DNA of 64,000 nt, taken from the UHGV virus genome UHGV-0101699. The stretch is one strand, 5' to 3'. The notes beneath the pieces are model-generated. The model searched no databases and had not been told where the DNA came from. It saw nothing but the letters and a program-made list of their open reading frames with translations. The DNA comes from a virus. Below are positions 13,319-59,070 of the stretch, piece after piece. The translations under genes were made by a program, and so were the position numbers. Within the stretch, counting starts at the first letter, position 1. Each line of letters begins with the position of its first letter.

Positions 13319-13446
13319 TTTCATTTCGGTAATCTATCCGCTGCGATAACGATGACGGCCTGAGCCTGAGTAGTCAGTTTGGAAGGATTATTGGAAGGAG
13401 TTAAAGGTCGTTAGATCTGGACGGCTTCTCTACTAACTCCATGAGA

Positions 13447-13475
13447 AAACCCGCCATATGGCGGGGTTCTTTATG
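13447..13475 (+). terminator. rho-independent terminator (CCCGCCATATGGCGGG + T-run) after cspA
   Basis: Perfect palindromic GC stem followed by TTCTTTAT. Confidence 0.75.
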
Positions 13476-13896: not shown

Positions 13897-13910
13897 GTGT
13901 TTTCCTTTAC

Positions 13911-15080: not shown

Positions 15081-15796
15081 GTGTTTTTCCCGTCATTAGC
15101 TTCAAACGCTAGCTTTTTTAAGATATTTGCGATTTGAGTGTTAGAGATGCCGAATTTTTCTCGCAACTTTTCATAGGTTGCGCCAGCCTTGCGCAAGGCG
15201 ACCACCTCAGCTCTTGCTTCAGCATCCAGTTTTTTGGATGCTCTTGAGACAACGATCGGCCCACCAACTCGTGCCCATTTCTTCCCGGTGACGATATGGT
15301 GAATGTAAAGCTCAGTTAAACCATATTCGGCCGCGAGGTCTTTGTTCAGAGCGCCTTCTGACTTTTTAATGCGAATAGCAATGACGACTTCGTTGGTTAG
15401 CTTGGCGTTGTAGCGCCTCTCACCAAACTCAACGGTATCGTGTGCAATGGCGTCAGCCATGTTGTCGACTTGAGTGCCATACGCGAGATTGGAGGGCGCA
15501 TTGTTTGATGGTCTTCCGTCAAGATGACGAATAAGTAAGCCTTCTGGTCGTTCTCCGTGGAATGCAGTTGCTACCAGATAATGGACTGTGCGGTCGCATT
15601 TGACGCCGTTGACGCTTAGTTTCACGCCCAGATGTCCAAAATCATTGATTACGCGAGGTTTGAGGATTTGCCCCTTCTTCACCCATTCGCCCCCATTGGG
15701 GGCTGTTCGTATAACATCTAAAGAGCGAATGCGACCTAAACTGGATGCTTCGTAATAACCTTCAAACTCAGGAATGGATTTCCAAATTTCTTCCAC
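15077..15796 (-). mobile_element. free-standing HNH homing endonuclease gene inserted within dnaE (NUMOD4 + HNH_3 type)
   Basis: EEIWKSIPEFEGYYEASSLGRIRS (NUMOD4-like) and HYLVATAFHGERPEGLLIRHLDGRPSNN (HNH). It sits exactly between the two dnaE parts with ATGA/TGA overlaps. The probable start is a GTG with a GGAG SD. Confidence 0.8.
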
Positions 15797-15798
15797 CG

Positions 15799-21952: not shown

Positions 21953-22068
21953 TGTTTTTCCTTATCGAGTAAACAAATTGTTTTCAGATATAAGAAAATA
22001 ACACTGCGCGAACAGGGGAGGAAGCAATTCGCGCAGGGGATCAATGAGTTATAGGCGGGTTATAAATT

Positions 22069-42832: not shown

Positions 42833-44278
42833 TTAATTTAATTGCTCACTACTCATGGCCACGCCTGTATCGAAGGTATTCTGGTTTGTATTTATGGCGT
42901 CGCCCCCTTCTGATGAGTTAATTTTATTCTCCAGCGCTTCAACTCGTTTAATCAGGACCTTCACCGCCGCCAGCGTGTCCATCATTATCACGTTGTTGTC
43001 GAGCTGAAGGCGTTCACTGTTAACCTGCTTATTACCATCCAGGTACGAAATATTAACGTGTTTCACGTATTGCTCGTCTACTTCCTCGGCCTGCTGCGCG
43101 ATGATCCCCCGGCGGACGCGGTTCTGTTCGTCGTCGTTATAGACGAACGTCACCAGCTCCAGCGCCTTTATGCGGTCTACTGACTGCTGCCCATCAGTAG
43201 GCGTGATATCGTGCTTCAGGCGAGCGTCAGACGTCCCCAGAAACTGCACGCTACCGCGCTGGCTTCCGTAGATATTGCCGTCGGCCAGGAATTGCCAATA
43301 CTGTATTGGTTGCGAAAATCCACCAACAGAAAGAATTAGTCGGTGGTTTGTCCCTACCTGCTCTTCGAACCACATAGCCGCCTGTCCACCATCAACGTTG
43401 CCATCACTACCGCGCGTACTAAATCTTGACGTAAAACGTGGCGCTTGTAACACGGTGCCATTTGCTATGTTTCCAGGGTCAGTGTTTAATCTGGCAATGA
43501 AGGCTTGCCCGTACAGATCGCCGTACTGCGTAGCAATGCCATAAACCCCGAGACCGCCACGGACTCGCAGCCCCGGATAAACCGCTAAAGCCCCGTCTTC
43601 GGTGATAATTCGATGCGTATAATCTGCAGAGCTACCTTTGTGGTGAAAATCAATGTACGGCGTTGTGTCGCTGCTGATTTCCAGGTTTCCGGCGTCGATG
43701 GCAGTGAACTGTGTATTGCTATTCTTCCTGAGAATTTGCCCTGCAGCCGTTATAGTGGCACTGAAAGTAACCCCCTTACTGAATATCTGCGTCTGTGTGA
43801 ACGTGTTTGCTGCGCTCGTCTTCGCTGAATCTTTCAGTGAGTTCCTGAGTTCCGCGAGGTCAGATGCTTTCGCCATCCCAGATACAGCAGGAACAGTCAC
43901 AGACGTACCTGTTATAGGGTCTGTCATCGTAATGTCGCCGCTTCCGGTCAGGGCTGTAGACCATCCTTGGACAACGTTACGCCAAAGAGTAAATGCACTG
44001 GCTAGTTGGTTCGCAAAAGACGATGTGCTGGCAGTTTCTGACGTGATAATTCCATATTTCGCACCAGAAAAAGCAGTTGTTATGTTTCTCGTCAGGGTCA
44101 GTTGAGTGTCATTATTTACTGATTTGATGGCATACAGATCAGCACTTCCATTGCGATAAATGACTAAAATTGAACCCTCTTGAATACCAAGTGCGGGCTC
44201 CGACCACTTTGTTGAAATACCAGTAACCTTTGCCTGGTTTGCTGCACCCGTTACGGTGCCAACTTCATACATTGCCAT
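42833..44278 (-). CDS. side tail fiber protein with C-terminal intramolecular chaperone (peptidase S74) domain
   Basis: SDARLKHDITPTDGQQSVDRIKALELVTFVYNDDEQNRVRRGIIAQQAEEV is the autoproteolytic chaperone signature found in T5 pb1 and K1F endosialidase tails. Confidence 0.7.
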   Translation of the reverse strand: MAMYEVGTVTGAANQAKVTGISTKWSEPALGIQEGSILVIYRNGSADLYAIKSVNNDTQLTLTRNITTAFSGAKYGIITSETASTSSFANQLASAFTLWRNVVQGWSTALTGSGDITMTDPITGTSVTVPAVSGMAKASDLAELRNSLKDSAKTSAANTFTQTQIFSKGVTFSATITAAGQILRKNSNTQFTAIDAGNLEISSDTTPYIDFHHKGSSADYTHRIITEDGALAVYPGLRVRGGLGVYGIATQYGDLYGQAFIARLNTDPGNIANGTVLQAPRFTSRFSTRGSDGNVDGGQAAMWFEEQVGTNHRLILSVGGFSQPIQYWQFLADGNIYGSQRGSVQFLGTSDARLKHDITPTDGQQSVDRIKALELVTFVYNDDEQNRVRRGIIAQQAEEVDEQYVKHVNISYLDGNKQVNSERLQLDNNVIMMDTLAAVKVLIKRVEALENKINSSEGGDAINTNQNTFDTGVAMSSEQLN

Positions 44279-44330: not shown

Positions 44331-47300
44331 TTAAGCCAGAGAGATGGAGCCAGTAGTTCTGTACATCGAGACAACCCCTGTAAACCGGAACTGACCGCTA
44401 TCGCCACGATTCGGCCACTGAATGGTAATCTGGTGACGTTGACCGAAGTTTGACGCCGGGATACGGATTGAGAAGATTGATGTTTCAAAGTCCTTGCCAT
44501 CGTTTCCAGAGTCAAAAGTCCAAACGGTCGTTTCATCAACGCGAATTGTTACGTTCTGACGCCATACCTGAACAATCGCAACGGAACCATTGAACACCAT
44601 ACGCCGTTCAAAGGGCATACCGTCAATCGTTGCAATCAGGTAGCGCGTGCCGGATGAGGTATTCCCGGAAGCTGGCCAGTTTTTAACAACACGGTCGGTC
44701 ATTGTCACAACGTCACCAACAATTTTATTGGCCTGAACAGTGCCAAGCACAGTGCAGTTCTCGTTAATAGTCACGTTATTAAGCACACCAGTATTTGCGT
44801 GAACTTCACCACGAATAACTACGTTGTTGAACTGTGAACTACCGTCTTTTCCAATTCTCCAGCCACTTGAACCGTTAACGAAATTGTCAGATCGGATTTC
44901 ACCGCCAATTTTTGCATTGGTGATGGAGCCATCCTTAATCACAGCGGCATTCATGTAGGCAACGCCATTTTCCACAACAAATGGTGTGGTCGTGTTTCCG
45001 TTAGAGGTATTGATTAAGCCGAAGCGATCAGCCTGAACCAGAAACTGGCTCTGCAAATTTTTGCCATCGATACCTAAAGCGATACCAGCAGCATACTTTT
45101 TACCGTTGCTGTTGGTTTCCATTTTGACCATCCAGGTACTGTTAACGTTGCCGTTTTCGACAACCGTTTTCTTCAGCTCCTGCAGCTCGGCTGACTGGCC
45201 TCCTACCTGAGCTGTCAAATTCGTCTGCTGCTGAGACAGTGCGCTTATCGTTGTGGCCTGGGTCTGCTGAGTTGACTTAATTGCCGCCAGAGAGGTGGTG
45301 GCGTTATTCAACTCCGTCTGGTTTTTGATGTTTGCCGATGCCTGCGCGTCAATTTGCGACTGCAAGCTGGTATTCAGCGACGACTGCGTTTTCTCGTTGT
45401 TGGTGATGGTCTGCGCCATCTGATCAACCTTCGAAGACGCATCATTCACCTGGGACGTCAAAGAGGACAGCTGAGACGCCTGGGATGTCACCTGCCCTTC
45501 TACATAGGTAACACGTGAGGTAAGGCTGGTGAGCGCGGATGCGTTCGCATTAGCCGAATCCTGTGCCTCTTTTGCGTCCGTGATATCGGTGACAACAACG
45601 TCATCGATATATAGATCATACCCCGGTGTACCAGTGCCAGTTGTGCCGCGGGTAGATACCCAAAATGCGCCGCGAGTGTGGCCAGCGGCTACACGGAGCG
45701 TACCGGTGAATTTCTTCCATGCGCCTCTTGCACCCAATGCGGCTTCATTGATAGTGATTGCCGTCGGCCAGTTATTGTTGTTGGCAGCGTTTTGGGTCTG
45801 CAAACCAACGAGCGTTGACCACCCAGAGGATGGCGACTGATCTGCCGGCATCATCGCCCAGAGTTCAATGCGGAATACCGCATTTTCACGCAGAGCAATC
45901 CACTTACCGATGGTTTTATCGCTGTTTCCGCCCTCACCGGCGCTGCGGGAAACACGCAACGACTTCGTTCCGCTTCGTTTCTGAGAGCTGACGACGACCG
46001 CACGCGAGCCGCTGATCTGCTGGTTTTCGGAGTACGTCTCCAGAGAACCATCAAACCACGGGTTGCTCCCCATCGCCTGAACAGTGCTCAAAGAGTTTTT
46101 GAGCGAAGTTGTCTGGCTGCTCTGGGTTTCAATTTCTTTCTCGTTCTGCGTGACGCGGTTCGTTAATGCCGTTAACGCAGCTGCATCCGCTTTCTTCGAA
46201 ACATTTGTGTTTGTGGTCGCAAGGTCATTCTTAAGTTGCGTAACCTGGCTGCCCTGGCTGGTGATGTCATTCTCTGTCTTGGTCACACGACTATCGAGTT
46301 TAGTGATCGCGCTCGAGTTCGCCTGAGTTTCAACAGAGTCGGTCACATCGACGACATAAAAATCATCAAAGTACATCGCGCCTGCGGACAAGAAAGCAGT
46401 GAACTGAACGTCAGCAACGACATCCTTTGTCGCCTTCCAGGTCCAGGACACTTCCTGCCAGTTCGAAGTGAACGGGCCATAAGCCTTACTTGCGATTAGA
46501 CCGTTACCTTCTGCCACACGGAATTTTGTGTTGTCAGTCGACTGAATGGTGGTATTAGGGTCCTGCTTTGCCCAGATGCCAATTTTGTACGACCGATCCT
46601 TTTTGAAGGAGATCTTCTGGCCCACGCCTGCAGAACCACCCGCCGCCAGTTTGGCGGCTTTGGTGCCAAGATGTGGAACCTGCAGCGTTACCACCGTGGC
46701 AATCCCGCTCCAGCCTGTATAGCCCTCCGTACCACGCTCAAAAGACGGGTTTACGATCAGGTTCCCGGGGATCTGGCTTGCTGCATCCACGCTGGCGTTA
46801 CTGGACGCAAGGCTGTTTTCCAGTGCCGTTGTCGAGGAGCTCAGGGAGTCAATATTATCCCCCTGGGTCTTCACTGTGTTCTGGAGCGTGGTAATTGCCG
46901 ACGCGTTCGCATCAGCCTTCATCATCACACCGCCGGCGGCGCCCAGTCCCATCATTACCCCGTTCACAAACTCGACTGAGGTCGAGATGTGGGCGGTGCC
47001 GTCGCCACCGGTTGGCGCACGCAGTTCCAGACCATCGCCAGGCTTCATGCCTTTGCGGCCAAGGAGAATGTAGGCACCACGATACGGTAGAGAGTTGACG
47101 ACTTCGGATGTGCCACCAAGAGATTCCAGGGCAGACAATACTTTACCTCGGTTGCCAGTTGGCTCATCGAATGTCAGGACACAAACGTAAGTCCCACTGG
47201 CCAGTGCCTCGATATCAGCCGACATCGTGGCACCATTATTCGCGCTGCCAAAGACATCGTATGTTTTGGATGTCGCAATCACCGTTGATCCGTCGCTGTG

Positions 47301-50300
47301 TTTTGCAAAAGTGACCAGCGCCCAGCTGCGACCAGGGGTAAACAGGTTTTTGCCGCTTTCATCAAAAACCCCAGGAGTTACGCTGTTGCCATTCCCCCGT
47401 GCAGTGACAGTAAACACAGTGCGACGGTTCATCGAGGCCTGCAGGCTGGTAATGCTACTGTTCGCCGCGGTTAAATCGCCCCCCTGAGATGTCACCGTGT
47501 TCCGGAGATCCTGCAATGCAGAAGCATCAGCTTTCTTGGCAATATTGTTCTGAGCTGTCGACAGCCCGTTCTCCAACGATGTGGTGCGATTTCCGATAGA
47601 GCTAATGGAAGTGCCTTGCTGATTCACTTTCGTTGTCAGCGAATCCACAGCCGACGCACTGGCGCTATCAGACGGAGACTCGTTCCAGTCGGAAACAACG
47701 TTACCTACCTCAAACTTCGGACTGTTGATGTACACCGTCTGGTCTTTGGAGGTATTGCTCTCGATACGGCACAGAATCAGGCGCTTGGTGCCCGTGGTAG
47801 GTGTCTGTTTCCACTTAACCCAATAGCGGGCCCATGAAGTGGTCAGCGTGAACTGCGCACGACCATCAGTGTTGTTACCTTTCGCACCCTGGCTGGTCTC
47901 GATAGACGTTGTGGTGTTCGGATTGTAGAAGAACGCCGTCATCGTCTGGCCAGTAACGCCGCCTTTCGCATAGAAGCTGTAAACGTACTCACCTGCATCG
48001 ACCGGCGACTCAAGCGTGATTTCCCGCAGATCCTTGTAACCGGAGCCGGCTTTTACAGTTGCGCCAATTACCGCATTACCACGATACGTATCGCTGACAA
48101 CGTTCGACCAGCCGGTCATATCGCCGGAGTTCTTGATCAGGTTTGTACCGCCGACAGAAATTGCATCAACCTTGTTGTTCAGATTCGTGACAGAAGAACT
48201 CGTTGAGTTAATGTCTTTTTCGGTCTGGGTAACACGGTTGGTCAGTGCCGTCAGAGCATTTGCGTCCGCTTTTTGAGCAACGTTTGCATTTGTTGTTCTC
48301 AAATTGTTCTCAAGATTGGTAGTGCGTGTACCAATACTTAAGATGTTCTCCCCCTGCTGATTTACCGTAGAGGTCAGCGAATCAACCGCTTTCGCCGTGG
48401 CGTCGAGGGAATCCTGGACTTTGGAGGAGTCGGTTACGTTCCGCAGATGCCAGTCAGTCACATACCAGACGGTGCCGAATGGGCTGGACTGGTTAATTTG
48501 CAGGAATGGACGGAAGAAGCCGCGATCGACAATCCCCTGAGTAATTTTGAATCGCCAGGTTACTCGCTGCCATGTGGCCGACGCCTTGCGGTTGCCGCCG
48601 GATGACAGAGGCGCGCCCACGCTGCCGCTTGGCCTTGTTGCGGTTCCGAGATACAGGTTGAAATCAGCGGAGCCGGTACCACACGCGACGAGAGCAGACA
48701 TTTCATAGACATCCCCCAATGTCGCCGGAATAGCAGCAAAATTTGGGTGATGGTCGCGAGCCGCAATGCGTGCGACATAAGCGTATGGGCAATTGGCTGG
48801 CACGCCCTCAGACGAGCTGGAAACCACAGTGAAGCCCATCTGACTAAACTCTGGGTCAAATGTCGGGTTGCTAATCAAATCGCCACTTGTCGCATTCCCT
48901 GCGCGTACAGATGAATTAAGCGCAGTGATACTGCTATTCGCAGAGGATAAGCCCGACTCTGTTTGATCGACGCGCCCGGACAACACGCTTAAAGCGCTCT
49001 GATCCGCTTTTTTACTGACGTTGTTATTGGTCGTTGCCAGGTCATTTGTCAGTTTGGTGATGCTGTTACCCTGACTGGTGATCTGGTCACCCTGTTGGGA
49101 GACGGTCGAGTCCAGTGTCGAAATCGCATTGGCGTTAGCATCTGCTGTACTTTGCGCATTGTAGGCATCAGTTACTTCGGTAATGACCAGGTCATCAATG
49201 AGGAATGAGTTTCCCGCCTTAACGCTGCTAACGTTAGGAATAGAAATCCTCACCATTGCCTGCTTAATACCGCTCTTCGTTGATTTCAGGTAACCAGAAA
49301 CCTTCGTCCATTGAGTTGAAGAGAGATCCTTTGCCGCTTTGGTAACTGCCGGCCACTGCCAGGAGTTGTCCTGATACTGGAGCGACAAACCGATAGAGAT
49401 CTGTGCATTCTCGGCCATAGCGGTACTCTTGGCATCCCGCTTAACCCAGCATTCCATATAGAAGACTGCGTTATCGCGTACCTGGAAACCGCTGAAAATG
49501 TGATTATCGCTGTTATCAGTTGCGTTAGCGTTGTAATCATTCGGACGCGTCACACGGATGCACTTATTACCGCCATGCGAGTCATCAGTGGTCACGATAA
49601 CGCGATTATTTGATAGATTGTGGCCAACCGCGTAGCTTTCAAAAGTGCCATCAGGAAGCAGATTAGCGCCGCGTTTGGATTGCTGGTTCAGAGAGCTGCT
49701 GAGCGACGTAATGTTGCTGTTCGCCGCCGTCAGACCGGACTCCGTCTTCTCTACCCGACCTGTCAGCGTAGTGACTGCCGACTGATCGGCCTTTTTCGCG
49801 ATGTTTGCGTCAGCGGCTTCGAGGTCATTGGTCAACTTAGTGATGCTGTTGCCCTGGCTGGTGATTTTGTCACCCTGCTGTGTCACCGTGCTCGACAACG
49901 TAGACAGCGCATCGCTATTAGCCTTGATCTTCACCTCATCCGTGATATCAAAGACCTTAAATGTATCAACCCAGATTTCGGCATTAGCCGGGTGCGCGTA
50001 AAGCTTAAAGTTCTGGCCATCAGCGTTAGAGGCAGTAAGTCCAGTCTCCCAGGTAATGGTCTGCCACTCACTGGTTAGTGTGACGTTTTTATCTTCATAA
50101 TTGCTGTCGGTCTGGCCGATTTTATTCTGGCGCCGGATCAACATGTTCATCGCCCCGGACACGCCCTTGGCTTTAACCACAACACGATATTTGCGCTGAC
50201 CATTAAGCGGCAGCGGCTTGTTGTTGTTGGAGAAGATGCCTGGGCTGGTAGTGGTCGTCCGGTTCAGCTTAACCCCAGCCTTACCATCACCGAAGTTGCC

Positions 50301-53300
50301 GAAAGTGACGCCTGCCGGATACTGGGTATCCCACGCAGTTGCACCCTGCAGGAAATCGTAGTTCGGGATCAGGTTGTCACCGGCGTTTCTGGCAGCGGTC
50401 AGGGTGTTATTCAGGTTCGTGATGCTGTTACCCTGGCTGGAAATCGTATCCCCCTGCTTGGAGACCGTATTTTGCAGCGTAGACAGCGCCTGTGCATCTG
50501 CCTTATTCGCCAGATTAGCGTTGGTCTGTTCGAGGCTATTTCGCAGGTCAGTAACGCTCTGTGAGGTGCTCGTGACGCGATCACCTACGGTGCTGACGTT
50601 TGAGGTGACGGCGCTAATGGCATTCGAAAGCGCGTTCATCCCAAGAGCAGAATTCAGCTGGGCTACCTTCTCGGACAGTTTAAAACCGAGGTTAATGTAA
50701 GCCTGACCAGTCCATTGGTTCACCAGGAACTCAACCGTGCTCCAGCCAGCTTTCAGATCAAAGCTAACCGTATTCCAGCTCGCATTACCAAAGGCAACCC
50801 TAACACCGTTCACGTACACGGCGCCCGTATCATCAAAAACACGAGAACCTGGTGCCATAGTGATGGTGGTATCAGCATTGACTTTCACGAAGGCTTTGTA
50901 ATGCGCGATCACGTAACTGCCGGCGCTCGCAAAGTCCAGTTTTGCCGCGTCAGGAACCTCATCGATCGAGATTGGCGCCTTACCGTTGATATCGCTAAAG
51001 GTCGGCTCAGTGGTATTGTTCGCCAGTTGTACGTTGTATACGCTACGCACCCACATGTTCTGGCGGCCGTTAACCATCTGGTTTGACAGCGAAGTGATGC
51101 TGTTGGAGTTCGACGTAATGTCTTTTCCCTGCTGGGTCACGGTGCTGTTGAGGGTTGATAACGCATTGGACGTCGCATCAATCGCTTTCTCATTGCTCAC
51201 GTCAACGCAGAAGACGTCATCGAGATACATATAGCCGGAAGCGACACTTGCGCGCAGAGACACAACCACGCTGGCGGTTTTGGCTGGCGTATACTCGCCG
51301 CTAATAAGTGCCCAGTTAGTCGACAGCCCGGCGCCGGTGATCGGGATATCCTTTAACGGCGTCAGATCTGCGTTTCGAAGGCTAATCTTGTTGTTGCCGG
51401 CATTATTGATCGCGAAGTCAGCGGATTTGCGAACCCATGCGCCGATACGATAAGTCTTGCCAGCCTGCAGCTCGACCGTTTGATTGCAGCCTGAGTCACC
51501 GCCAGAGGCCAGTTTACCCGCCTGGATGATGTATTTCCCCGATTTGGGGTTTTGGGCCTCCAGCAGAGTCCAACCAACATACTCCCAACCTTCGAAACCA
51601 CGTTCAAAAGAGTTGTTTTTGAGCATGTTGCCGATGATCGCTTTCGAGGCATCCGCATCAGCATTGGCGTTATCCAGCGAGTTTGACAGGCTGGTGATGC
51701 TCTGGGACTGGCTGGAGATCTGATTTTCGGCAGCAGTTACGCGGTTTGTCAGATTAGTCACAGCTGAGGCGTCGGCTTTGTTCTTGATGCTGTTCTGCAT
51801 CGAAGTGATCTGCTGCCCTTGGCTGGTAATGGTGCCCTCAACAGACGATACCCGAGAGGTCAGAGCATTGGTGGCACTGGCGTTCGCCTCAATCGCCAGG
51901 GCATCAGTGACGTCAACAAAACCAACATCATCGAAGTACTGGGAACCGGTTTTGAGAGAAGACATGATCGATACGTCAACTTTACCGGTCAGCGTCGCCT
52001 TCCAGGTATCAGAGACCTCTTTCCATGTTTCATCTTTGGGCAGATTCTCCGGACGGATCGGAATCTCTTTGAGCAACGTGGCTGCGCCAATACGCAGTTT
52101 GTTGTTGCCAGGGCTGCTGATTACCGCATCCGTGGTGCAGCGCACAAAAGAGGACAGCTTGTATGTCCGCCCTTCGACGACGCTTACAGATTGCGTGATT
52201 TGCACCGTGCCAGCGGCGCAAACAAGAATTTTACTACCAGAATGGGGCGCACTCGCCTTGATAATACTGGATACGCTGTTCCCTGCAGACCACCCTGCCA
52301 GGTCACGCTCAAAGGAGGCGTTAACCAGCAAATTGCTCGGATTGCTTTTGGCAGTATCGGTATCGCTCTGGATATCGCTCAGCGAGTTATTCAGGGTGGT
52401 GATGCTTTCACTCTGGCTGCTAAGGGTTTTATCCTGCTGGGTTACGGTCGACTGCAGACCCGTGATCGCCTTGCTATTCGCAGACACACCAGACTCAACA
52501 CTTCCTACGCGATTGTCCAGCGTAGACAATGCCGCACCTTGTGATTTAAGGGTGTTGCCCTGCTCTTCAACCTTCTGGGAAATTGTCTGTACTGCACTGG
52601 CATCGGCCTTCTGGCCAAGGCTTGTTTGCAACCCGGTAATCTTGCTTGCCTGGGAAGCTTGTTCAGTGGACAGCGTATGCAGCTCTTCTGCAACAGAGGC
52701 TTTGTTTCTGTTGAATTCAGTCTGCAGGGATTCACGCGCACTCGCTTCCGCAGCATCGGCAGTGATACGAGCATTTTTCTCCTGATAGATCAGACCGGAG
52801 CGAATGTCGTCCAGATTTCCGCTTTCAGATGAACCGCGGATTTGTGCAGCCAATGTGCTGCGCGCCTGCGCTTCGGCGGTATCTGCATTCGCACGAGCCT
52901 GCTGCTCTTCCTGTAACGCGGCCATGCCTGCGCCCGGCGTCGGTCGACCAACGGCGATCCAGTCGAATAACAGGTAATTGTCCGCATCCTGACCCGAAGT
53001 GAAATCGAAGCGGAAACGACGAATCGTTGTCGAATCCCGCCACTCAATGTCGTGCAGGGTCAGAATCGCAATACCCTTGTCGTCGTATTCCGGCTCATTG
53101 ATAACCACGGAGCGACCAGCATTCCAGCCAGTTTCATCAGCGCCGATCCAGAACATTCTGGCGTTCCAGGTTGGGTTGCCAACCTTTTTAACGCGCATCT
53201 TAATGAAACGATAAGCATGGGCATCGATCGTCAATCCGTTAGGGGAACGACAGGTTGAGGTCGGATTGTTCGCTTTCAGCCAGCCATCGCTGGTGACGCT

Positions 53301-56300
53301 CATTGGCGTGTAGCCATTATCATCTTCCGTCCAGCCTTCGGCGTCCTGGTCGAAATACCAGATTTTCAGAGAGTCAAACTGTTCCCCTGTGCCAGCGGCA
53401 ATCTGCGAGATCTGTCGCGCGAGGTTTTCGTCACCGGAGGTCACAACCTCAGACAAGCTATCGATAGAGGTTTTCAGCTCATTCTTCGCGCTCAGCAGTT
53501 GGTCGGCCGCTTGCTTGGCTGCATCATTAACATCTGCAATACGGTCATTCGTCTCTTTCTGAATGGCCGCAGTCAAATCTTTGCTGGTCTGGGACAGCGA
53601 CGTTGTCAGTGATGACTGCGCTTTCTTAATCTCCTGCGACAGAGCAGCGTCGCCGTCTTTAATCGACTGTTTTGCAGCTTCAATTTGGCTGTTTACATTG
53701 GAGATGTTGGTATTGATCGTCTGGTTGACCGTATCGATATTGTCGACAATTGTCTGATTGACGGTATCAATGTCCTCTTTCAGCGACTGATTGACAGAGT
53801 CAACCTGCGCCTTAATTTCGGAGGAGGTTTGCGCAAGGTCGTTTTCAACTTGCTGAATAGACTCGTTGACTGAGTTCTGAACCTCGCCAATGGCGTTGTC
53901 TACCGCCTCCTGAGTGGCTTTGCTGTCGATTTCGTCGAGCAGCTCTTTGCCGAGTTCAGAAGATGTGATCTTGTCTTTCAGGAAAGACAATACGTCGCGA
54001 GTGGTGGCCTCTGTACCGAGGTTCGAGTTCGGCTGGCCTACCATCCCACGTTTGTTTACCGCACGAATCCAGTAATACCAGGTCTCGTTGTCACCCAGCC
54101 CAGCGTGAGTGAAAGTCGTTGTGGCGGCCTGAGCAATGAGTGTCGCGGTGTCCAGCTTATTTGTTTTGGACGCATACACGTTGATCTGCGCGAGGTCGAC
54201 TGAATCAGGGTTAACCCAATTCAATACCACGTTACGATAATCCCCCACCGCGGTCAGTGATGTGGGCGCCCCTGGCGGCGTCATCGTGCCTTTTACCTGA
54301 TAGACAGCAGTAATAATCTCGGATTTTTTGCCGCCGAAGGAAACGGAATACAGCTGGAAGTCATATCGCCCATTTTCGGCAACATTGACGATTTCATATT
54401 GTTCTTCCGTGGCGCGGGCAGATTGCCAGTTGGAGACGTTGCCCTCGTCGGAGCGGCGCCAGCTGACCCAGTATTCTGGTGATTTACCTTCCCAGGCAAG
54501 CATCAGCTTCACGGACAAGTTGCCCGGACTGGACAGATAGGTGCCTTCTGAGATGACCAGATTGCTCGGTTTGGAATATGTGGGATCAAGAACCGTCGTA
54601 TTTTCTGGAACGAGCGCGGCCCCGTTATCAATCGCCTGGTACTTAGATGCATTGTTCTGCACCACCGTGATATCAAACGACCCCGGGGTTTCACCTTGCG
54701 CGATAGCGACAACGCGCGCCCGCATTGGAACCAGGTCTGGTTCGGTGATCGTCCAGACGCCATTCGCTACTGGTTGATCGGCTGTGGCCAACGCCGTCTT
54801 GAAGGTAACTTTAGTGATGTTGTCGCCGGTCTCGTTGATGTCTCGCTCAACGATTTTGCCTTCCTGATTGATGATGCGGATGAAGCTACCGCTCTTTTTC
54901 AGAGAGACAGGTGCATCGAGGGTGATGCTGTTTTTGGTGAAAGAGACAATGCGACCGGAATTGCGTTTGCCGGCACGATATTTGTTCTGAATCAGAACGG
55001 TTTCGCCCGGCATCAGGAACGAGGCGTCCAGGCCCGCGGTAAAGGTGATCATGTCTGACTCCATACGCGCGGTATAGAGCAGCCACAAACCTACACGATG
55101 AGCCTGACCACGGCTGGTGCATCCGAACGCAACGGCCTCGGTCTTGCGCTCCCCGTATCGGGCCATCGCTTCCTGATCTTCAACATACTCAACGTTCTGC
55201 TTATAGCCGTCTTGTTTGTTGTTATAAGTGATCAGCGCTACGGACGGCCGGTCTTTTCGAGCAGAGCCTTTATAGGTAAACAGGCCATCTTTTACGTTTG
55301 CGTTGGTAAACAGCATGACAGGGTCAGACGGGCTGTCCTGCATGATATTCACCATGCCACCAGCCCAGAAAACCATGCCACGGAAAGCGCCGGCAATATC
55401 CTGAATCAGACGATAAGCGTCCTGACGACTGGTGATCTGGGTGTTGATTGCAAAGCGTTTTTCTTTGCCGCCAAAGCCATCATCAACCTCTTCGTCGCAG
55501 TAGCGACCGATCTGATAAAGCTGGCCAAGGTCAATCATTGACTCCGAAACAAATTTGCCGAGGCCATAACGAGCATTGGTCAGCAGATCGAACAGAATCC
55601 AGGCAGGGTTGGAAGACGACAGAAGCTTAAATGTTCCATCCCAAACGCCGTTATAAGTGTTCGTATTTTCATCATAATTCGAAGGCACACGGATTTTGAG
55701 GCCACGGATAAGATACGAACGTGACGGCATAGAGCTACCAAACTGCTCAGAGTTAACCTTAAGGCCAACCAGAACGGAGTTCGGGTAGTTCATTGGGGTA
55801 TCAACGATCTCACCGATAGAGTCGACCCAGGTATCGTTAAAGAGATACTGATCGTTGCTGTCGGCGGAGAGACGAAGCACGCGCACTTTATAGGCACGCC
55901 CAGGCTTTGGAAGCTGGATTTCGTAACTGCGGTAGTAGACACCAGTCTTTTTCGCAGTCAGCGTCACGTCAGAGCTGCTCTCACCTGTAGCAATCACGTC
56001 ATAGAAAGAGCCATTGCCATTGGCCAGCTGGAACTTAAACTGGACAGAAGTACCGTTTGTGTCCCCTGTTTTCTTGTCAATGCTACGCAGCGACGGGAAC
56101 TTCATGATCACTCGGACACGATCAGCGTCGTCGTTATCGATGGCGACCGTAACCGCGTTTGTGGTTTTCAGCTGTGTGTTAACGGCCTTTGGCGTTTCGA
56201 CAAAATCGAAACCAGGCATCGGGCTTTGGTCTTGCGAACCATCCCGGAAATCCCAGGTTACACCGGAATAGTTGAATGATCCGTCTTCGTTCTCCAGCGC

Positions 56301-56507
56301 CACGCCATCGATGAAGATAGATTTAGCGCCGTTAATCAACCCGCCAACAACACCTTCCCCGAGCAGATCGAGGATAGACGCCATGGCCCGCGAATTAACG
56401 GTATCATCCGCTTCAACTGGTGTACGGCTTGAGCCTGAGCTCTTTTTGCCGCCCGCTCCCGCAATCAGGAGGGGCAATCTCTTTTTCTTGAACTGATCCA
56501 TGTTCAA
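44331..56507 (-). CDS. J: central tail fiber / host-specificity protein J homolog, 4058 aa, with ~11 inserted cassette modules
   Basis: The N-terminal ~1100 aa and C-terminal ~330 aa align with lambda J (NSVLVGLKVNSEQFGSSMPSRSYLIRGLKIRVPSNY...GVWDGTFK; QFLVQADRFGLINTSNGN...NVTINENCTVLGTVQANKIVGDV). Between them are repeated units headed by A(L/I)STLxSTVTQQGDxITSQGNSITxLxNDL-type linkers. Confidence 0.9.
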   Translation of the reverse strand: MNMDQFKKKRLPLLIAGAGGKKSSGSSRTPVEADDTVNSRAMASILDLLGEGVVGGLINGAKSIFIDGVALENEDGSFNYSGVTWDFRDGSQDQSPMPGFDFVETPKAVNTQLKTTNAVTVAIDNDDADRVRVIMKFPSLRSIDKKTGDTNGTSVQFKFQLANGNGSFYDVIATGESSSDVTLTAKKTGVYYRSYEIQLPKPGRAYKVRVLRLSADSNDQYLFNDTWVDSIGEIVDTPMNYPNSVLVGLKVNSEQFGSSMPSRSYLIRGLKIRVPSNYDENTNTYNGVWDGTFKLLSSSNPAWILFDLLTNARYGLGKFVSESMIDLGQLYQIGRYCDEEVDDGFGGKEKRFAINTQITSRQDAYRLIQDIAGAFRGMVFWAGGMVNIMQDSPSDPVMLFTNANVKDGLFTYKGSARKDRPSVALITYNNKQDGYKQNVEYVEDQEAMARYGERKTEAVAFGCTSRGQAHRVGLWLLYTARMESDMITFTAGLDASFLMPGETVLIQNKYRAGKRNSGRIVSFTKNSITLDAPVSLKKSGSFIRIINQEGKIVERDINETGDNITKVTFKTALATADQPVANGVWTITEPDLVPMRARVVAIAQGETPGSFDITVVQNNASKYQAIDNGAALVPENTTVLDPTYSKPSNLVISEGTYLSSPGNLSVKLMLAWEGKSPEYWVSWRRSDEGNVSNWQSARATEEQYEIVNVAENGRYDFQLYSVSFGGKKSEIITAVYQVKGTMTPPGAPTSLTAVGDYRNVVLNWVNPDSVDLAQINVYASKTNKLDTATLIAQAATTTFTHAGLGDNETWYYWIRAVNKRGMVGQPNSNLGTEATTRDVLSFLKDKITSSELGKELLDEIDSKATQEAVDNAIGEVQNSVNESIQQVENDLAQTSSEIKAQVDSVNQSLKEDIDTVNQTIVDNIDTVNQTINTNISNVNSQIEAAKQSIKDGDAALSQEIKKAQSSLTTSLSQTSKDLTAAIQKETNDRIADVNDAAKQAADQLLSAKNELKTSIDSLSEVVTSGDENLARQISQIAAGTGEQFDSLKIWYFDQDAEGWTEDDNGYTPMSVTSDGWLKANNPTSTCRSPNGLTIDAHAYRFIKMRVKKVGNPTWNARMFWIGADETGWNAGRSVVINEPEYDDKGIAILTLHDIEWRDSTTIRRFRFDFTSGQDADNYLLFDWIAVGRPTPGAGMAALQEEQQARANADTAEAQARSTLAAQIRGSSESGNLDDIRSGLIYQEKNARITADAAEASARESLQTEFNRNKASVAEELHTLSTEQASQASKITGLQTSLGQKADASAVQTISQKVEEQGNTLKSQGAALSTLDNRVGSVESGVSANSKAITGLQSTVTQQDKTLSSQSESITTLNNSLSDIQSDTDTAKSNPSNLLVNASFERDLAGWSAGNSVSSIIKASAPHSGSKILVCAAGTVQITQSVSVVEGRTYKLSSFVRCTTDAVISSPGNNKLRIGAATLLKEIPIRPENLPKDETWKEVSDTWKATLTGKVDVSIMSSLKTGSQYFDDVGFVDVTDALAIEANASATNALTSRVSSVEGTITSQGQQITSMQNSIKNKADASAVTNLTNRVTAAENQISSQSQSITSLSNSLDNANADADASKAIIGNMLKNNSFERGFEGWEYVGWTLLEAQNPKSGKYIIQAGKLASGGDSGCNQTVELQAGKTYRIGAWVRKSADFAINNAGNNKISLRNADLTPLKDIPITGAGLSTNWALISGEYTPAKTASVVVSLRASVASGYMYLDDVFCVDVSNEKAIDATSNALSTLNSTVTQQGKDITSNSNSITSLSNQMVNGRQNMWVRSVYNVQLANNTTEPTFSDINGKAPISIDEVPDAAKLDFASAGSYVIAHYKAFVKVNADTTITMAPGSRVFDDTGAVYVNGVRVAFGNASWNTVSFDLKAGWSTVEFLVNQWTGQAYINLGFKLSEKVAQLNSALGMNALSNAISAVTSNVSTVGDRVTSTSQSVTDLRNSLEQTNANLANKADAQALSTLQNTVSKQGDTISSQGNSITNLNNTLTAARNAGDNLIPNYDFLQGATAWDTQYPAGVTFGNFGDGKAGVKLNRTTTTSPGIFSNNNKPLPLNGQRKYRVVVKAKGVSGAMNMLIRRQNKIGQTDSNYEDKNVTLTSEWQTITWETGLTASNADGQNFKLYAHPANAEIWVDTFKVFDITDEVKIKANSDALSTLSSTVTQQGDKITSQGNSITKLTNDLEAADANIAKKADQSAVTTLTGRVEKTESGLTAANSNITSLSSSLNQQSKRGANLLPDGTFESYAVGHNLSNNRVIVTTDDSHGGNKCIRVTRPNDYNANATDNSDNHIFSGFQVRDNAVFYMECWVKRDAKSTAMAENAQISIGLSLQYQDNSWQWPAVTKAAKDLSSTQWTKVSGYLKSTKSGIKQAMVRISIPNVSSVKAGNSFLIDDLVITEVTDAYNAQSTADANANAISTLDSTVSQQGDQITSQGNSITKLTNDLATTNNNVSKKADQSALSVLSGRVDQTESGLSSANSSITALNSSVRAGNATSGDLISNPTFDPEFSQMGFTVVSSSSEGVPANCPYAYVARIAARDHHPNFAAIPATLGDVYEMSALVACGTGSADFNLYLGTATRPSGSVGAPLSSGGNRKASATWQRVTWRFKITQGIVDRGFFRPFLQINQSSPFGTVWYVTDWHLRNVTDSSKVQDSLDATAKAVDSLTSTVNQQGENILSIGTRTTNLENNLRTTNANVAQKADANALTALTNRVTQTEKDINSTSSSVTNLNNKVDAISVGGTNLIKNSGDMTGWSNVVSDTYRGNAVIGATVKAGSGYKDLREITLESPVDAGEYVYSFYAKGGVTGQTMTAFFYNPNTTTSIETSQGAKGNNTDGRAQFTLTTSWARYWVKWKQTPTTGTKRLILCRIESNTSKDQTVYINSPKFEVGNVVSDWNESPSDSASASAVDSLTTKVNQQGTSISSIGNRTTSLENGLSTAQNNIAKKADASALQDLRNTVTSQGGDLTAANSSITSLQASMNRRTVFTVTARGNGNSVTPGVFDESGKNLFTPGRSWALVTFAKHSDGSTVIATSKTYDVFGSANNGATMSADIEALASGTYVCVLTFDEPTGNRGKVLSALESLGGTSEVVNSLPYRGAYILLGRKGMKPGDGLELRAPTGGDGTAHISTSVEFVNGVMMGLGAAGGVMMKADANASAITTLQNTVKTQGDNIDSLSSSTTALENSLASSNASVDAASQIPGNLIVNPSFERGTEGYTGWSGIATVVTLQVPHLGTKAAKLAAGGSAGVGQKISFKKDRSYKIGIWAKQDPNTTIQSTDNTKFRVAEGNGLIASKAYGPFTSNWQEVSWTWKATKDVVADVQFTAFLSAGAMYFDDFYVVDVTDSVETQANSSAITKLDSRVTKTENDITSQGSQVTQLKNDLATTNTNVSKKADAAALTALTNRVTQNEKEIETQSSQTTSLKNSLSTVQAMGSNPWFDGSLETYSENQQISGSRAVVVSSQKRSGTKSLRVSRSAGEGGNSDKTIGKWIALRENAVFRIELWAMMPADQSPSSGWSTLVGLQTQNAANNNNWPTAITINEAALGARGAWKKFTGTLRVAAGHTRGAFWVSTRGTTGTGTPGYDLYIDDVVVTDITDAKEAQDSANANASALTSLTSRVTYVEGQVTSQASQLSSLTSQVNDASSKVDQMAQTITNNEKTQSSLNTSLQSQIDAQASANIKNQTELNNATTSLAAIKSTQQTQATTISALSQQQTNLTAQVGGQSAELQELKKTVVENGNVNSTWMVKMETNSNGKKYAAGIALGIDGKNLQSQFLVQADRFGLINTSNGNTTTPFVVENGVAYMNAAVIKDGSITNAKIGGEIRSDNFVNGSSGWRIGKDGSSQFNNVVIRGEVHANTGVLNNVTINENCTVLGTVQANKIVGDVVTMTDRVVKNWPASGNTSSGTRYLIATIDGMPFERRMVFNGSVAIVQVWRQNVTIRVDETTVWTFDSGNDGKDFETSIFSIRIPASNFGQRHQITIQWPNRGDSGQFRFTGVVSMYRTTGSISLA

Positions 56508-56517: not shown

Positions 56518-57129
56518 TTACAGTTGGTCTATGGTGATTGAAGAACTCACAATCTGTGAGCCAACTAAAATTTCCTCGCCGTAATTAAGCTGAACCGGGT
56601 TTCCCTGGTTGCTGGTGTTTTGAGGCCCATCGAAATAAAACGAATCCGTGTTATCAGCCTGTCTGACAGACGCATTTGATGCCTGCGGCGAAATCAGCAT
56701 GGACACACCGCCCATCATCAATGACATCCCTCCCATCATCAGCGCAGATGACGCACCCGCGGTAAGACCAAAGCCAATCGCACCGACAGCGATCATCGCG
56801 GCGCCTACGAAAGTCTGGAACCACCCAAACGCCTTACCACCGCTGCCACGTGGTACGGGAGTAATGCGGATTTTTGCGATATTTTCCGACTCGCCCATCA
56901 TCTGGTATTCGGTGTCGTCCATTGACCACTTGTGGCCCTGCTTATTTGTGACCTGGATGTGGTACTTATCGAAGTGGTTACGGTTACGCTTAATCCAGGC
57001 TTTAAAGCCCGGGCGATTCGCCTCAATCAAATCGATGGCTTGTTTGGTGTTGCGCACCTTCAATTTCCAATGGCGGCCAAAGTTCTTTGCCATCGCACCG
57101 CCGAGCTGAACATGAACTAATTCAGACAC
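56518..57129 (-). CDS. I: tail assembly protein I homolog
   Basis: Position between K and J. Gly/Ala-rich hydrophobic C-terminal half as in lambda gpI. Confidence 0.65.
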   Translation of the reverse strand: MSELVHVQLGGAMAKNFGRHWKLKVRNTKQAIDLIEANRPGFKAWIKRNRNHFDKYHIQVTNKQGHKWSMDDTEYQMMGESENIAKIRITPVPRGSGGKAFGWFQTFVGAAMIAVGAIGFGLTAGASSALMMGGMSLMMGGVSMLISPQASNASVRQADNTDSFYFDGPQNTSNQGNPVQLNYGEEILVGSQIVSSSITIDQL

Positions 57130-57914
57130 GTCTCGTCTCCCTTGAGTAAATCCCTGTGACGCAGGTGATGCGTCGTGTGCTTCTGATACATCCCACCGTA
57201 ATAAGCCCGACAGCTGAGACGGTCGATCTGGTGATGCATGATCATGCCGTCGCCGATGTATACCGCGCAGTGATCTGGCATTTTCCCGTACTGGATGAAG
57301 AAGATGTCGCCGCGCTGGGGTTCCGTCCCCGGCGCCATGCGGACAAGTCCTTCATTTCGGTAGTTCTGGTCGAGGATGTCGTTGTCCCCCGTGTACCAGG
57401 AAGGAATATGCAGGTGGGCGTTTGCATTCAGCTCAACGTCAAATTCACGCTTTAGGTAATCGCGGCACAGCATCCAGCAATCAAACACACCGAATACGTA
57501 TGGGCGCCCGAGGTAGGGCATCTCAAAACCACACGGATAAATGACGTTCATTTCGCTAAAGTGGAATGGCATATCGCTTTCCACATTTTTGCGAATTGCC
57601 AGAATCATCCACGGTAGTTCCGTCGCCTCGCACCCGGAGCGATCCGGGTCTGACGCCTCTGCGCTGCGCTCAACGTGAGAGTGCCAAATAGCGATCACTT
57701 CCCCAGCATCTTCGGCCGCAATAATGTCGCTGGCACGCATGACAAAATCCTCACGTGGCGTTTCAGAGACATTCATCGCTTCCATAAAGCGATATTTCTC
57801 ACCCTGTGTGCGCACCAGAAAGCCACACGCTTCATTCGGGTAACGTTGGATAGCGCAGCGGTAGATATCCTGCATGACTTCTGAGCCCAGCTCAGGTAAC
57901 GTCTGGTTACTCAT
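57117..57914 (-). CDS. K: tail tip assembly protein K homolog (JAB/MPN + NlpC/P60 domains)
   Basis: JAMM motif AIWHSHVERSAEASDPD. NlpC/P60 Cys-His-His (DCWMLCRDYL...H..H). Start reassigned to MSNQTL, which overlaps the gpL stop as ATGAGTAA. The listed N-terminal extension is non-coding. Confidence 0.75.
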   Translation of the reverse strand: MSNQTLPELGSEVMQDIYRCAIQRYPNEACGFLVRTQGEKYRFMEAMNVSETPREDFVMRASDIIAAEDAGEVIAIWHSHVERSAEASDPDRSGCEATELPWMILAIRKNVESDMPFHFSEMNVIYPCGFEMPYLGRPYVFGVFDCWMLCRDYLKREFDVELNANAHLHIPSWYTGDNDILDQNYRNEGLVRMAPGTEPQRGDIFFIQYGKMPDHCAVYIGDGMIMHHQIDRLSCRAYYGGMYQKHTTHHLRHRDLLKGDETCLN

Positions 57915-58608
57915 ATCGTGTCGCCCCAATAAATCCGCCAAAATGAATAACGCCATTCGCGAAGTAGTTGCGACGAGCATTACAGGCGTCGTAACGCTTG
58001 GTGCAGTAGTCGGCGCCGGCCAAAGAGGTTTGCTGGTTGTTTTTGTCGAAATATGGGCCGGTGTAGCCACACTCTGTTCCGCGATATTTCCACGGGCAGC
58101 TGTTTTTGATGATCTGACGATACGGCAGTTGAACACCCATCAGATCTAAGACGCTGGACAGCTCGAATTCGACATACTGGTGTGTCTCCAGGGTCTTCTG
58201 TTCGACGAACCACATTTCATCAGCAAAATGCTGACTTGGGTCTGCGGTCGGGTTTCCATCCGGAAAGTTCACCGCGTCCAGAAAACGTGCCAGCGTCATC
58301 TTGCGAATGATTTTGCAGCCAATCAGATCGTCATTGGCCTGCAGCTCGGCAGAAATTACACCGTCGTAGTTGGAAACCTGAATCTTTGGACGAGGAAGTG
58401 TTCCCTGACCGCTTTTATCAAAGCCAGACGCTTTAATTGGCCACGGCTCATAGGAAACTCCCTGCCAGACAATTGGCTGGCTAAGCCCGTTGGTGCCGGC
58501 ATGGAAATACAACTTGCCGCCGGAGGTTGTCACCGACATATCCAGCTCGAACAACTCAATGAGCGCAGAAGGCGATAAACTCTGAATATCAGCTCTAATA
58601 CCCATCAC
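57907..58608 (-). CDS. L: minor tail protein L homolog
   Basis: RFLDAVNF and the four-Cys cluster (C..C......C...C) match lambda gpL. Confidence 0.85.
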   Translation of the reverse strand: MMGIRADIQSLSPSALIELFELDMSVTTSGGKLYFHAGTNGLSQPIVWQGVSYEPWPIKASGFDKSGQGTLPRPKIQVSNYDGVISAELQANDDLIGCKIIRKMTLARFLDAVNFPDGNPTADPSQHFADEMWFVEQKTLETHQYVEFELSSVLDLMGVQLPYRQIIKNSCPWKYRGTECGYTGPYFDKNNQQTSLAGADYCTKRYDACNARRNYFANGVIHFGGFIGATRYE

Positions 58609-58659
58609 TTCATCCTTGAAAAACTCAACGTCACATCCTGTGACGTTGATATATAATAA

Positions 58660-58680
58660 TAGATAAGTACTTACTTATCT
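58660..58680 (-). promoter_or_regulatory. copy of dispersed box (AGATAAGTACTTACTTATCTA) between gpM and gpL genes
   Basis: Extended palindrome AGATAAGTA/TACTTATCT. Followed on the coding strand by TATTAT, then a GTCACA..TGTGAC hairpin before the ATG. Confidence 0.5.
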
Positions 58681-58691
58681 ATAGTCGCAAA

Positions 58692-59027
58692 TTAAGACTC
58701 AAAAACCTGTCTAAATGTTGCCGTAAGCACTTGATAACCTGGGTAACGTTTTACCGTATGGCTATCACAAACCACGATAATTGCTTTGCCTCTTGGGTTA
58801 GTCCAAACGAATGACTCCACCCCTGCGCGGGCAGTCAAAAAATCATCAACGTCGTTTACCACGTCATGGCTGCGGGTGAACGTGAGAGACCACTCTTCTT
58901 TAATCCGATTGAGCCCCTGCGACTGGCGCTGCTCGTAATCATCGCCGTAGTTCAGCACGGTCACGTTAGGCTTTACCGTTTTCTCAGACTCATAATCTGG
59001 ATACCAATTAAATACTTTCCTCGACAT
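58692..59027 (-). CDS. M: minor tail protein M homolog (111 aa)
   Basis: Start reassigned to MSRKVF, preceded by GGAAGTG. NVTVLNYGDDYEQRQ...FVWTNP aligns with lambda gpM VRFGDGYSQRA...FLWTPP. Confidence 0.7.
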   Translation of the reverse strand: MSRKVFNWYPDYESEKTVKPNVTVLNYGDDYEQRQSQGLNRIKEEWSLTFTRSHDVVNDVDDFLTARAGVESFVWTNPRGKAIIVVCDSHTVKRYPGYQVLTATFRQVFES

Positions 59028-59070
59028 ATCACTTCCTTGTGATGGCCGCCCGCTAAGGCGGCCGGCTTTA

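Follow-up and report, generated by a model that had tools for sequence, protein, structure and literature searches.

Results

A single intact reading frame encodes a giant predicted homologue of lambda J

We analysed a 64,000-nucleotide (nt) stretch of the virus genome UHGV-0101699 (the window), in which one uninterrupted open reading frame (ORF) runs on the minus strand across 44331..56507. An earlier note, made from the letters alone and giving no strand, had proposed this frame as a J-type central tail fibre in which about 11 tandem modules sit between conserved lambda-J ends. The frame holds 4058 codons counted from a mechanically assigned TTG, with its stop codon at 44331-44333. Translation probably begins at the third codon, an ATG (window 56501) that is the annotated start in pJN2-26 and in RefSeq plasmids; the product would then be one of 4056 amino acids (aa) and 434.9 kDa. 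There is no internal stop and no frameshift that would split the ORF into J and separate fibre genes, the case that the note had named against its own proposal. Compared with the 98%-identical relative p4727, 177 of the 212 substitutions (83%) fall at codon position 3, and 182 are synonymous against 30 that are non-synonymous. This positional bias and synonymous excess, together with its annotation as one coding sequence in many complete plasmids, mark it as a real, constrained gene.

Judged from sequence, the product is a homologue of lambda gpJ, the tail-tip or central fibre protein; the identification draws on matches at both termini, on the J domains in Pfam and on operon order. In the hub region (aa 1-862, up to the start of the helix bundle; 53922..56507, minus strand), residues 22-862 align to lambda J 3-837 (8iyk_J, E 5e-144). 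Pfam places FNIII-A_GpJ at 103-237, Phage-tail_3 at 359-521 and further FNIII domains here, and in the whole-protein scan PF24801 and PF13550 scored above their cut-offs. At the other end, residues 3773-3971 align to lambda J 843-1035. This end comprises the Phage_Tail_Tip beta-prism fibre domain (DUF1983, PF09327; aa 3778-3907, 44787..45176, minus strand; Pfam E 1e-42) and a C-terminal receptor-binding domain (aa 3908-4058, 44334..44786, minus strand), for which p4727 and 1825-KPC53 carry an alternative allele; its proximal ~64 aa are lambda-J-like and its distal ~90 aa are group-specific. Both J ends are conserved, as had been proposed. Since the J match ends at residue 862 (J 837) and resumes at 3773 (J 843), the intervening ~2,910 aa, close to the ~2900 aa first estimated, are an insertion at one point inside lambda's three-helix bundle, an element of ~50 residues at J 809-861 (PMC11101478).

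The gene order, established by Pfam on the neighbours and from the annotation of pJN2-26 and of the E. coli SSU5-like Cyrano, is tape measure-M-L-K-I-J-fibre, which is the canonical lambda-type H-M-L-K-I-J tail-tip operon. This position, the J N-terminus and the tip domain together bear out the assignment as a J-type central fibre. The upstream block (56518..63630, all minus strand) consists of I (56518-57129), K with JAB and NlpC/P60 domains (within 57117-58136), L (57907-58608), M (within 58692-59216) and the tape measure protein (59071-63630). The gene directly downstream of J encodes a 481-aa tail fibre whose C-terminal domain is a Peptidase_S74 intramolecular chaperone (42833..44278, minus strand). 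The RefSeq accessions of this fibre differ (WP_032443603 vs WP_048333199) between plasmids that differ in their J tip allele, which hints that the two co-vary.

The insert alternates coiled-coil linkers with globular domains

The linkers were found with an iterated hidden Markov model (HMM) of the linker motif plus chopped-window BLAST; self-BLAST of the whole protein gave the identity match only and returned no internal repeats. The HMM delineated 11 linker groups (L1 to L11) over residues 1276-3768, bracketing ten globular domains of 151-187 aa (D1 to D10), and an eleventh domain (D0, residues 1055-1240) lies upstream of these ten, so that the count of about 11 modules in the earlier note agrees with ours. 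Its description of the middle region as an array of helical linkers and beta-rich modules is likewise supported by the linker HMM, unit alignment, AlphaFold2 (AF2) models and sequence periodicity. The linkers are repeated and helical as it had stated, but they are not of a uniform ~60 aa: their lengths are 30, 64, 74 (six copies), 136 and 120 aa.

Most common is a double linker of 74 aa built around a central KAD motif: a 30-aa half (A[LI]STL.STVTQQGD.ITSQGNSIT.L.N.L) is followed by a ~14-aa spacer ending in KAD and then by a second 30-aa half. The six copies, all encoded on the minus strand like the rest of the array, are L4 (aa 1963-2036, KAD 2002; 50400..50621), L5 (aa 2200-2273, KAD 2239; 49689..49910), L6 (aa 2461-2534, KAD 2500; 48906..49127), L7 (aa 2707-2780, KAD 2746; 48168..48389), L8 (aa 2953-3026, KAD 2992; 47430..47651) and L10 (aa 3400-3473, KAD 3439; 46089..46310). 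Also assigned by the HMM were L2, a double linker with its KAD centre at 1577 (aa 1548-1611; 51675..51866), and two single linkers, the 30-aa L3 (aa 1782-1811; 51075..51164), helical over model residues 2-28 in AF2, and L9 (aa 3204-3233; 46809..46898), with a KAD at 3197 before it. The array is flanked by L1 (aa 1241-1376; 52380..52787), a heptad coiled coil with four copies of the 30-aa motif recognised by HMM and periodicity, and by L11 (aa 3658-3777; 45177..45536), the last coiled coil, which leads into the tip domain where the lambda-J match resumes at 3773.

The inter-module linkers are heptad-periodic (hydrophobic autocorrelation at lag 7 of 0.40-0.56), and AF2 models the double linker of 74 aa as a single unbroken helix of 82 residues (model residues 173-254) with a predicted local distance difference test (pLDDT) score of 78-88. 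Unlike these, the first stalk segment (aa 863-1054, 192 residues; 53346..53921, minus strand), which is ~70% identical to the J of Cyrano, has a hendecad repeat, with an autocorrelation of 0.61 at lag 11, and could be a different type of coiled coil or a segment prone to form a beta-prism. Pfam matches to Apolipoprotein, SF-assemblin and SlyX were dismissed; all are below cut-off (28.1 < 30 for SlyX, on the linkers) and reflect coiled-coil composition.

Opposite L1 and D1, the plus strand holds a 335-aa ORF (51778-52785) whose product is Leu/Ser-rich. Its third codon positions coincide with those of the sense frame, so that the substitution test cannot tell the two frames apart, and we rejected it as a gene on these two grounds. 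The ORF exists as had been noted and looks like a by-product of codon composition on the sense strand, a point on which the substitution test does not discriminate.

All eleven domains resemble carbohydrate-binding folds

From profile and fold comparisons, all 11 domains are predicted to belong to carbohydrate-binding families or folds: eight like carbohydrate-binding modules (CBMs) of families 4/9, one CBM11-like, one tentatively PA14-like and one ILEI (interleukin-like EMT inducer). The Pfam gathering cut-offs are 25.9 bits for CBM_4_9 (PF02018) and 27 bits for ILEI (PF15711). CBM_4_9 is exceeded by D1 (aa 1377-1547; 51867..52379; 34.2 bits, single-domain scan), D2 (aa 1612-1781; 51165..51674; 37.1 bits), D4 (aa 2037-2199; 49911..50399; 28.7 bits) and D9 (aa 3234-3399; 46311..46808; 37.9 bits), the closest solved relative of D9 being a CBM16 (2zew_A, E 2e-8). 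Similarly, D8 (aa 3027-3203; 46899..47429) exceeds the ILEI cut-off both alone (41.9 bits) and in the whole protein (36.7 bits). These five domains carry the suggestion in the earlier note that the modules are of a carbohydrate-binding type, and profile or fold links extend it to the others.

D5 (aa 2274-2460; 49128..49688) is putatively CBM_4_9-like (23.1 bits, below the cut-off) and aligns to D1 in hhalign with 97% probability. D10 (aa 3474-3657; 45537..46088) is putatively CBM-like and of the D5 class (hhalign probability 100% to D5 and 97% to D1); the whole-protein Pfam scan, the only one in which D10 was included, gave no PF02018 match to any domain. D6 (aa 2535-2706; 48390..48905) is putatively CBM-like, with 91-92% probability to the D1/D2 class, and D7 (aa 2781-2952; 47652..48167) is a putative CBM4/22-like beta-jelly-roll; neither matched PF02018 in Pfam scans of single domains. 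D3 (aa 1812-1962; 50622..51074) is a beta-sandwich, tentatively PA14-like, for which no sequence-profile match to the PA14 family was found. The constant domain D0 (aa 1055-1240; 52788..53345) is CBM11-like: a profile built from 12 homologues and searched against the PDB matches 8gtc_M 488-623 (E 4.2e-9), a domain of the roseophage R4C megatron for which both the name 'carbohydrate-binding domain' and the CBM11-like topology come from PMC10276861. All of these domains are on the minus strand. We set aside two sub-threshold matches, that of D3 to 'Cadherin-like' (E 0.009) and that of D0 to 'Qn_am_d_aII' (E 0.013).

Cassettes are gained, lost and exchanged within the linkers

The earlier note had quoted a 20-nt linker sequence as repeated at five places. 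At up to one mismatch it occurs at 49059, 49842 and 50421 only (0.02 expected by chance); near 46240 no match was found at up to three mismatches, and there, as near 51100, the copies are diverged. The DNA repeats are genuine but weak: a 94-nt family of four copies is 61-71% identical, at spacings of 783, 579 and 675 nt. Its copies lie at 49049-49142 (L6), 49832-49925 (L5), 50411-50504 (second half of L4) and 51086-51179, the last being diverged, with 61% identity to the reference.

Comparison of unit number among related genomes, which the note had proposed, showed that near-identical plasmids differ by insertions or deletions of single cassettes. The D4 cassette (exactly 579 nt) is missing from Kp1604_p2 (NZ_CP085480.1) and pRHBSTW-00472_3 (NZ_CP055511.1), with the crossover inside a 71-nt stretch alignable to both flanking repeat copies, and the D5 cassette (exactly 783 nt) is missing from INF336_p4 (LR890743.1). 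Because the 579- and 783-nt deletions equal the spacings of the quoted repeats, the linker repeats can be identified as the recombination sites. The D6 cassette (738 nt) is missing from p53374 (NZ_CP089018.1) and from phage 48ST307; the joint lies at the AAAGCGGA (K-A-D) codons at the centre of the double linkers, with the left crossover in L6 and the right one in L7. Between the same D6 junctions pJN2-26 carries a different cassette, across which identity falls from 99.3% to 94.7%. D9 and D10 are replaced in pRHBSTW-00472_3 (NZ_CP055511.1) by alleles that are 50-52% identical, and p4727 and 1825-KPC53 have a swapped tip, diverging after aa 3904. Every cassette or tip event observed keeps the reading frame.

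Exchange also crosses lineages. Phage 48ST307 is a phiKO2/N15-like linear plasmid prophage in which the D5, D7 and D8 cassettes are 96-97% identical to those here (D5 96%), yet identity over D0 is just 49% and the cassettes stand in another order, which points to recent cassette transfer between unrelated elements. Unrelated phiKO2-like phages carry cassettes of 95-97% identity. Recombination within the conserved linkers adds, removes and swaps cassettes while keeping the frame; its crossovers fall either at the KAD centre or in one of the half-linkers ('ALSTL..QQGD.ITSQGNSIT'), and it operates inside this plasmid lineage and also with unrelated phiKO2/N15-like Klebsiella phages. The idea that the repeats are substrates for shuffling and deletion is borne out by these natural in-frame variants; the substrates themselves are not long repeats but short microhomologies (61-71% identity). 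A diversity-generating retroelement and an invertible segment were also considered as sources of variability; nothing in the analyses made pointed to either, and we set both aside because linker recombination explains the variation observed.

In INF336_p4 (LR890743.1, K. pneumoniae, locus 5001-13080), a 140-kb plasmid that also has a ColRNAI replicon, the reading frame ends at about aa 2743 and similarity to the window gene extends no further than gene nt 8863; this copy may be disrupted or rearranged.

The fibre belongs to a widespread family of Klebsiella phages

The gene matches 605 plasmid records, 301 of which cover at least 80% of it, and in an evenly spaced listing of 60 of these matches, 17 records hold all 12,177 nt in colinear order, with 96.7-99.5% identity. 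The same range of identity holds for copies in ~110-kb IncFIB non-mobilizable Klebsiella plasmids and in phages pJN2-26 and vB_Kpn_1825-KPC53, and the ~110-kb Klebsiella phage records with the gene include pJN2-26, GArcari-2022a/b, p4727 and 1825-KPC53.

This recurrence bears on the reading of the locus as an assembly artefact, through repeat expansion or a chimera of co-resident prophages, or as a decaying pseudogene. Short-read assemblies do often break in this family, leaving many 'partial' proteins on contigs of 1-3 kb, and the 95-97% identical cassettes of an unrelated phage-plasmid lineage could mislead assemblers where both are co-resident. The colinear gene in 17 of the 60 records, the 301 of 605 that cover at least 80% and the several phage records argue otherwise, the intragenic repeats at 61-71% identity are too diverged to collapse, and decay is at odds with the intact frame and the strong synonymous excess. 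We regard such an origin as very improbable.

From sequence comparison the host element is a ~110-kb phage-plasmid of the Klebsiella SSU5-supergroup / pKpn-type, a group defined in PMC7969092; the annotation of pJN2-26 carries notes of SSU5 similarity. That the element is a phage-plasmid is confirmed by window 7576-36502, where an SSU5-type replication and recombination module comprises a UvsX-like recombinase fusion (7576-9921), a DNA polymerase (15799-18162), a CobT-like protein (19672-22044), a DNA ligase (29743-31065), a primase (33891-35015) and a DnaB helicase (35162-36502). In E. coli SSU5-like plasmids the match to the fibre gene is limited to its first ~2.6 kb.

The protein is a further, highly redundant, phiKO2-Gp21-like giant J and not a new kind of system. 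PHROG 2589, a 3686-position profile of the giant-J family, matches it at 4493 bits. Gp21 of phiKO2 has 3433 aa, was recorded as 'similar to lambda J protein' in the 2004 GenBank record AY374448, and has units 61% identical to those here. Further homologues occur in NAR688 (55 kb; ~4300 aa), vB_KpnS-MUC-5 (48.5 kb; 3358 aa), 48ST307 (3193 aa) and Kpn74 (3088 aa), with the same linker groups in 48ST307, NAR688 and Kpn74, and gp21 homologues of ~4200 aa were reported in two of the Klebsiella prophages studied in PMC7784688. At E <= 1e-3, a profile of the KAD-to-KAD unit retrieved 5,716 cluster representatives, with 322 remaining at E <= 1e-30. Of the best 148, 43 have at least 3000 aa and five at least 4000 aa (the longest 4797 aa), the J N-terminus is present in 60 and the tip domain in 64, and D0 is single-copy, never more, in each of the 30 in which it was detected. 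The claim that this would be among the largest phage structural proteins holds only in a relative sense, since its own family reaches 4797 aa and the size is not unique.

Most database homologues are 'partial' proteins on contigs of 1-3 kb, some standing for tens to hundreds of sequences, and homologue searches with shorter queries returned only proteins below ~1000 aa, mostly fragments. Short-read assemblies of Klebsiella break systematically in this family, a plausible reason being the near-identical cassettes of prophages that share a cell. The clusters P0149 (4524 aa) and P0118 (3647 aa) have members, P0252 and P0253, that each lie on a Logan contig of 170,119 bp. These are possibly one and the same contig, in which case one element may carry two giant fibres. 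P0118 has four D3-like and two D7-like domains and no J N-terminus.

The 531 CBM-core units of the best 148 representatives fall into 258 clusters at 50% identity, and it is as such diversified, exchanged parts that the cassettes speak against a role as a mere spacer or ruler, in which the insert would lengthen the fibre through a thick capsule and the beta-sandwiches would be inert beads that stabilise or register the trimer and bind no glycan. Inert beads would not be expected to diversify and be shuffled like this. Moreover, the 11 domains are all assigned to carbohydrate-binding families or folds, several with scores above curated Pfam cut-offs, and three different lectin superfamilies are present, which a pure spacer does not need. 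We therefore consider a spacer role unlikely.

Of the annotated phages with cassette units, 54 records are from Klebsiella and two from K. aerogenes; Acinetobacter phages have the linker only in common. This restriction to phages of one capsulated genus is relevant to whether the modules instead bind environmental glycans such as mucins or biofilm matrix, concentrating virions with little cell recognition in the manner of Ig-like/Hoc-type mucus adherence. ILEI and PA14-type domains do occur in eukaryotic proteins and microbial adhesins, as judged from family names and structural matches, and many strains that carry the gene were isolated clinically from mucosal sites or blood. The domains are nevertheless placed on the infection-critical central fibre and not on capsid or tail-tube decorations, and cassette exchange between Klebsiella phage lineages suggests a target on the host surface. 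A primarily environmental role seems improbable to us.

Discussion

Comparison with known fibres

Lambda gpJ (8iyk, 8xcj) shares with the protein its hub/FNIII N-terminus, tip beta-prism, proximal receptor-binding part and operon position, but has 1132 aa with a helix bundle of only ~50 residues (809-861), where here 2,910 aa of coiled coil and 11 lectin-type domains are found, and the distal ~90 aa of the receptor-binding domains are unrelated. The phiKO2 Gp21/PHROG 2589 giants have the same arrangement of J N-terminus, D0, linker/cassette array and tip, with linker motifs and cassette families in common. They differ in their replicons (linear N15-like plasmid prophages, ~48-kb siphophages and chromosomal prophages) and in cassette number and order, and their N-termini are divergent. 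Within the same supergroup, the 1575-aa J of Cyrano is 70% identical over aa 1-1036 and has a homologous tip domain, whereas its stalk, a bare coiled coil of ~400 aa, lacks both globular cassettes and D0, and the J gene is followed by one for a separate 1341-aa P1 S-like fibre where the 481-aa fibre stands here. At aa ~1130-1440, the Cyrano J (locus 12007-16734) has about ten tandem repeats of ~28 residues (DISAAI..EQEAR..AD.AL..QI.QL.SKV), an alternative means by which the same fibre is lengthened with no lectin domain.

Among more distant systems, the evolved Dit/Tal, tail-tube and DT1/STP1 Tal proteins of Gram-positive siphophages likewise have CBMs grafted on tail-tip proteins and bind the host surface (PMC7291167), but with one or two CBMs in loops or extensions and not an 11-unit coiled-coil array; the host envelope differs and the relationship to the fibre here is one of fold class only. 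In the roseophage R4C megatron, the homologue of D0 (8gtc_M 482-629) is a peripheral domain on the tail-tip hub with a proposed capsule contact (PMC10276861); there it stands in the hub periphery and not on an extended stalk, and no cassette array is present. The central fibres of F-type pyocins (F2: 25vf; F7) have a J-like N-terminus and tip with a long coiled coil just before the tip beta-prism, as here, although this coiled coil is of ~163 residues with no inserted domains. By analogy only, the trimeric autotransporter adhesins such as Bartonella BadA also have long trimeric coiled-coil stalks with repeated beta-rich domains and vary in length by recombination; these are bacterial surface adhesins and not virion proteins, and their domain families are unrelated to those of the fibre.

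We found no functional or structural dissection of any member of the giant-J family in the searchable literature. Three features appear to be undescribed there, the phiKO2 genome paper lying outside it: the attribution of lectin-type folds to all 11 modules, the siting of the insert within lambda's helix bundle, and the exact insertions, deletions and swaps of cassettes at linker junctions.

A candidate multivalent glycan adhesin

We propose, as the reading that we consider reasonably probable, that the J fibre mediates multivalent, non-degrading adhesion to glycans, followed by the tip's lambda-like engagement with the outer membrane. The trimer would form a beaded rod of ~150 nm displaying 33 lectin-type domains. 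The length is calculated from 1,016 linker residues taken as extended coiled coil at the standard rise per residue; from the models we infer the trimeric state, the rod length and the lateral display of the domains. The lectin-type domains would bind capsule and/or O-antigen multivalently and reversibly, without degradation, holding the virion on the cell while the thin fibre threads the capsule. The lambda-like tip would then engage an outer-membrane receptor, leading to tail opening, and cassette turnover would re-tune the glycans recognised.

Adhesion of this kind fits the restriction of the cassettes to phages of a heavily capsulated genus, and the precedent of CBM-decorated tail proteins as auxiliary adhesins in Gram-positive siphophages (PMC7291167). 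It fits, too, with the temperate Klebsiella phages that require a capsule and are specific to capsule type, yet have no detectable depolymerases (PMC7784688).

Several points weigh on the other side. Glycan binding by the cassettes is a prediction from their sequences. CBM-like beta-sandwiches are generic folds that also serve as purely structural bricks in phage fibres. The models behind the trimer, its length and the lateral display are shallow-alignment monomer predictions with pLDDT 65-69. Well over a hundred plasmids from varied isolates carry a near-constant cassette set, which speaks against a tight fit to any one of the many capsule types and perhaps for conserved glycans as targets. 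The main primary adhesin could be the neighbouring 481-aa fibre with the S74 chaperone. Finally, neither the path of a signal from the receptor-binding domain over ~150 nm to the hub nor the means by which the virion closes that distance is explained.

A bolder version, which we hold only tentatively and think doubtful as a whole, makes the array the missing determinant of depolymerase-independent polysaccharide tropism in temperate Klebsiella phages. Here each cassette would recognise its own capsule or O-antigen motif, the 33-domain fibre would bind the capsule and pass through it undegraded, and in-frame gain, loss and exchange of cassettes at the linker repeats, including exchange between unrelated lineages, would reprogramme host range as a combinatorial code. 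As for the distance to the outer membrane, the segmented coiled coil might shorten through coiled-coil-to-beta refolding and so reel the virion in by ~150 nm; a coiled-coil-to-beta-prism switch reported for the F7 pyocin central fibre (preprint PMC12874032) is a possible precedent. By a crude regular-expression search, the pattern SxSxxMxxLxS is enriched in L1 only (8 matches vs 1.4 expected), with no enrichment in L11 (3658-3777; 1 match vs 1.1 expected).

Implications for Klebsiella phages

A specialist is unlikely to be surprised by the kind of system described here. For phages of the priority pathogen Klebsiella pneumoniae, a need for capsule depolymerases is the usual assumption. A fibre with 11 lectin-type domains is a testable candidate for depolymerase-independent capsule recognition by temperate Klebsiella phages, the mechanism of which was left open by PMC7784688. 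The giant-J family also explains a recurrent break point in short-read Klebsiella assemblies. Hundreds of clinical phage-plasmids encode the fibre, among them some with resistance genes such as KPC, and the natural variants with single-cassette deletions or swaps provide near-isogenic test material. The conserved linker junctions suggest a simple route to host-range engineering.

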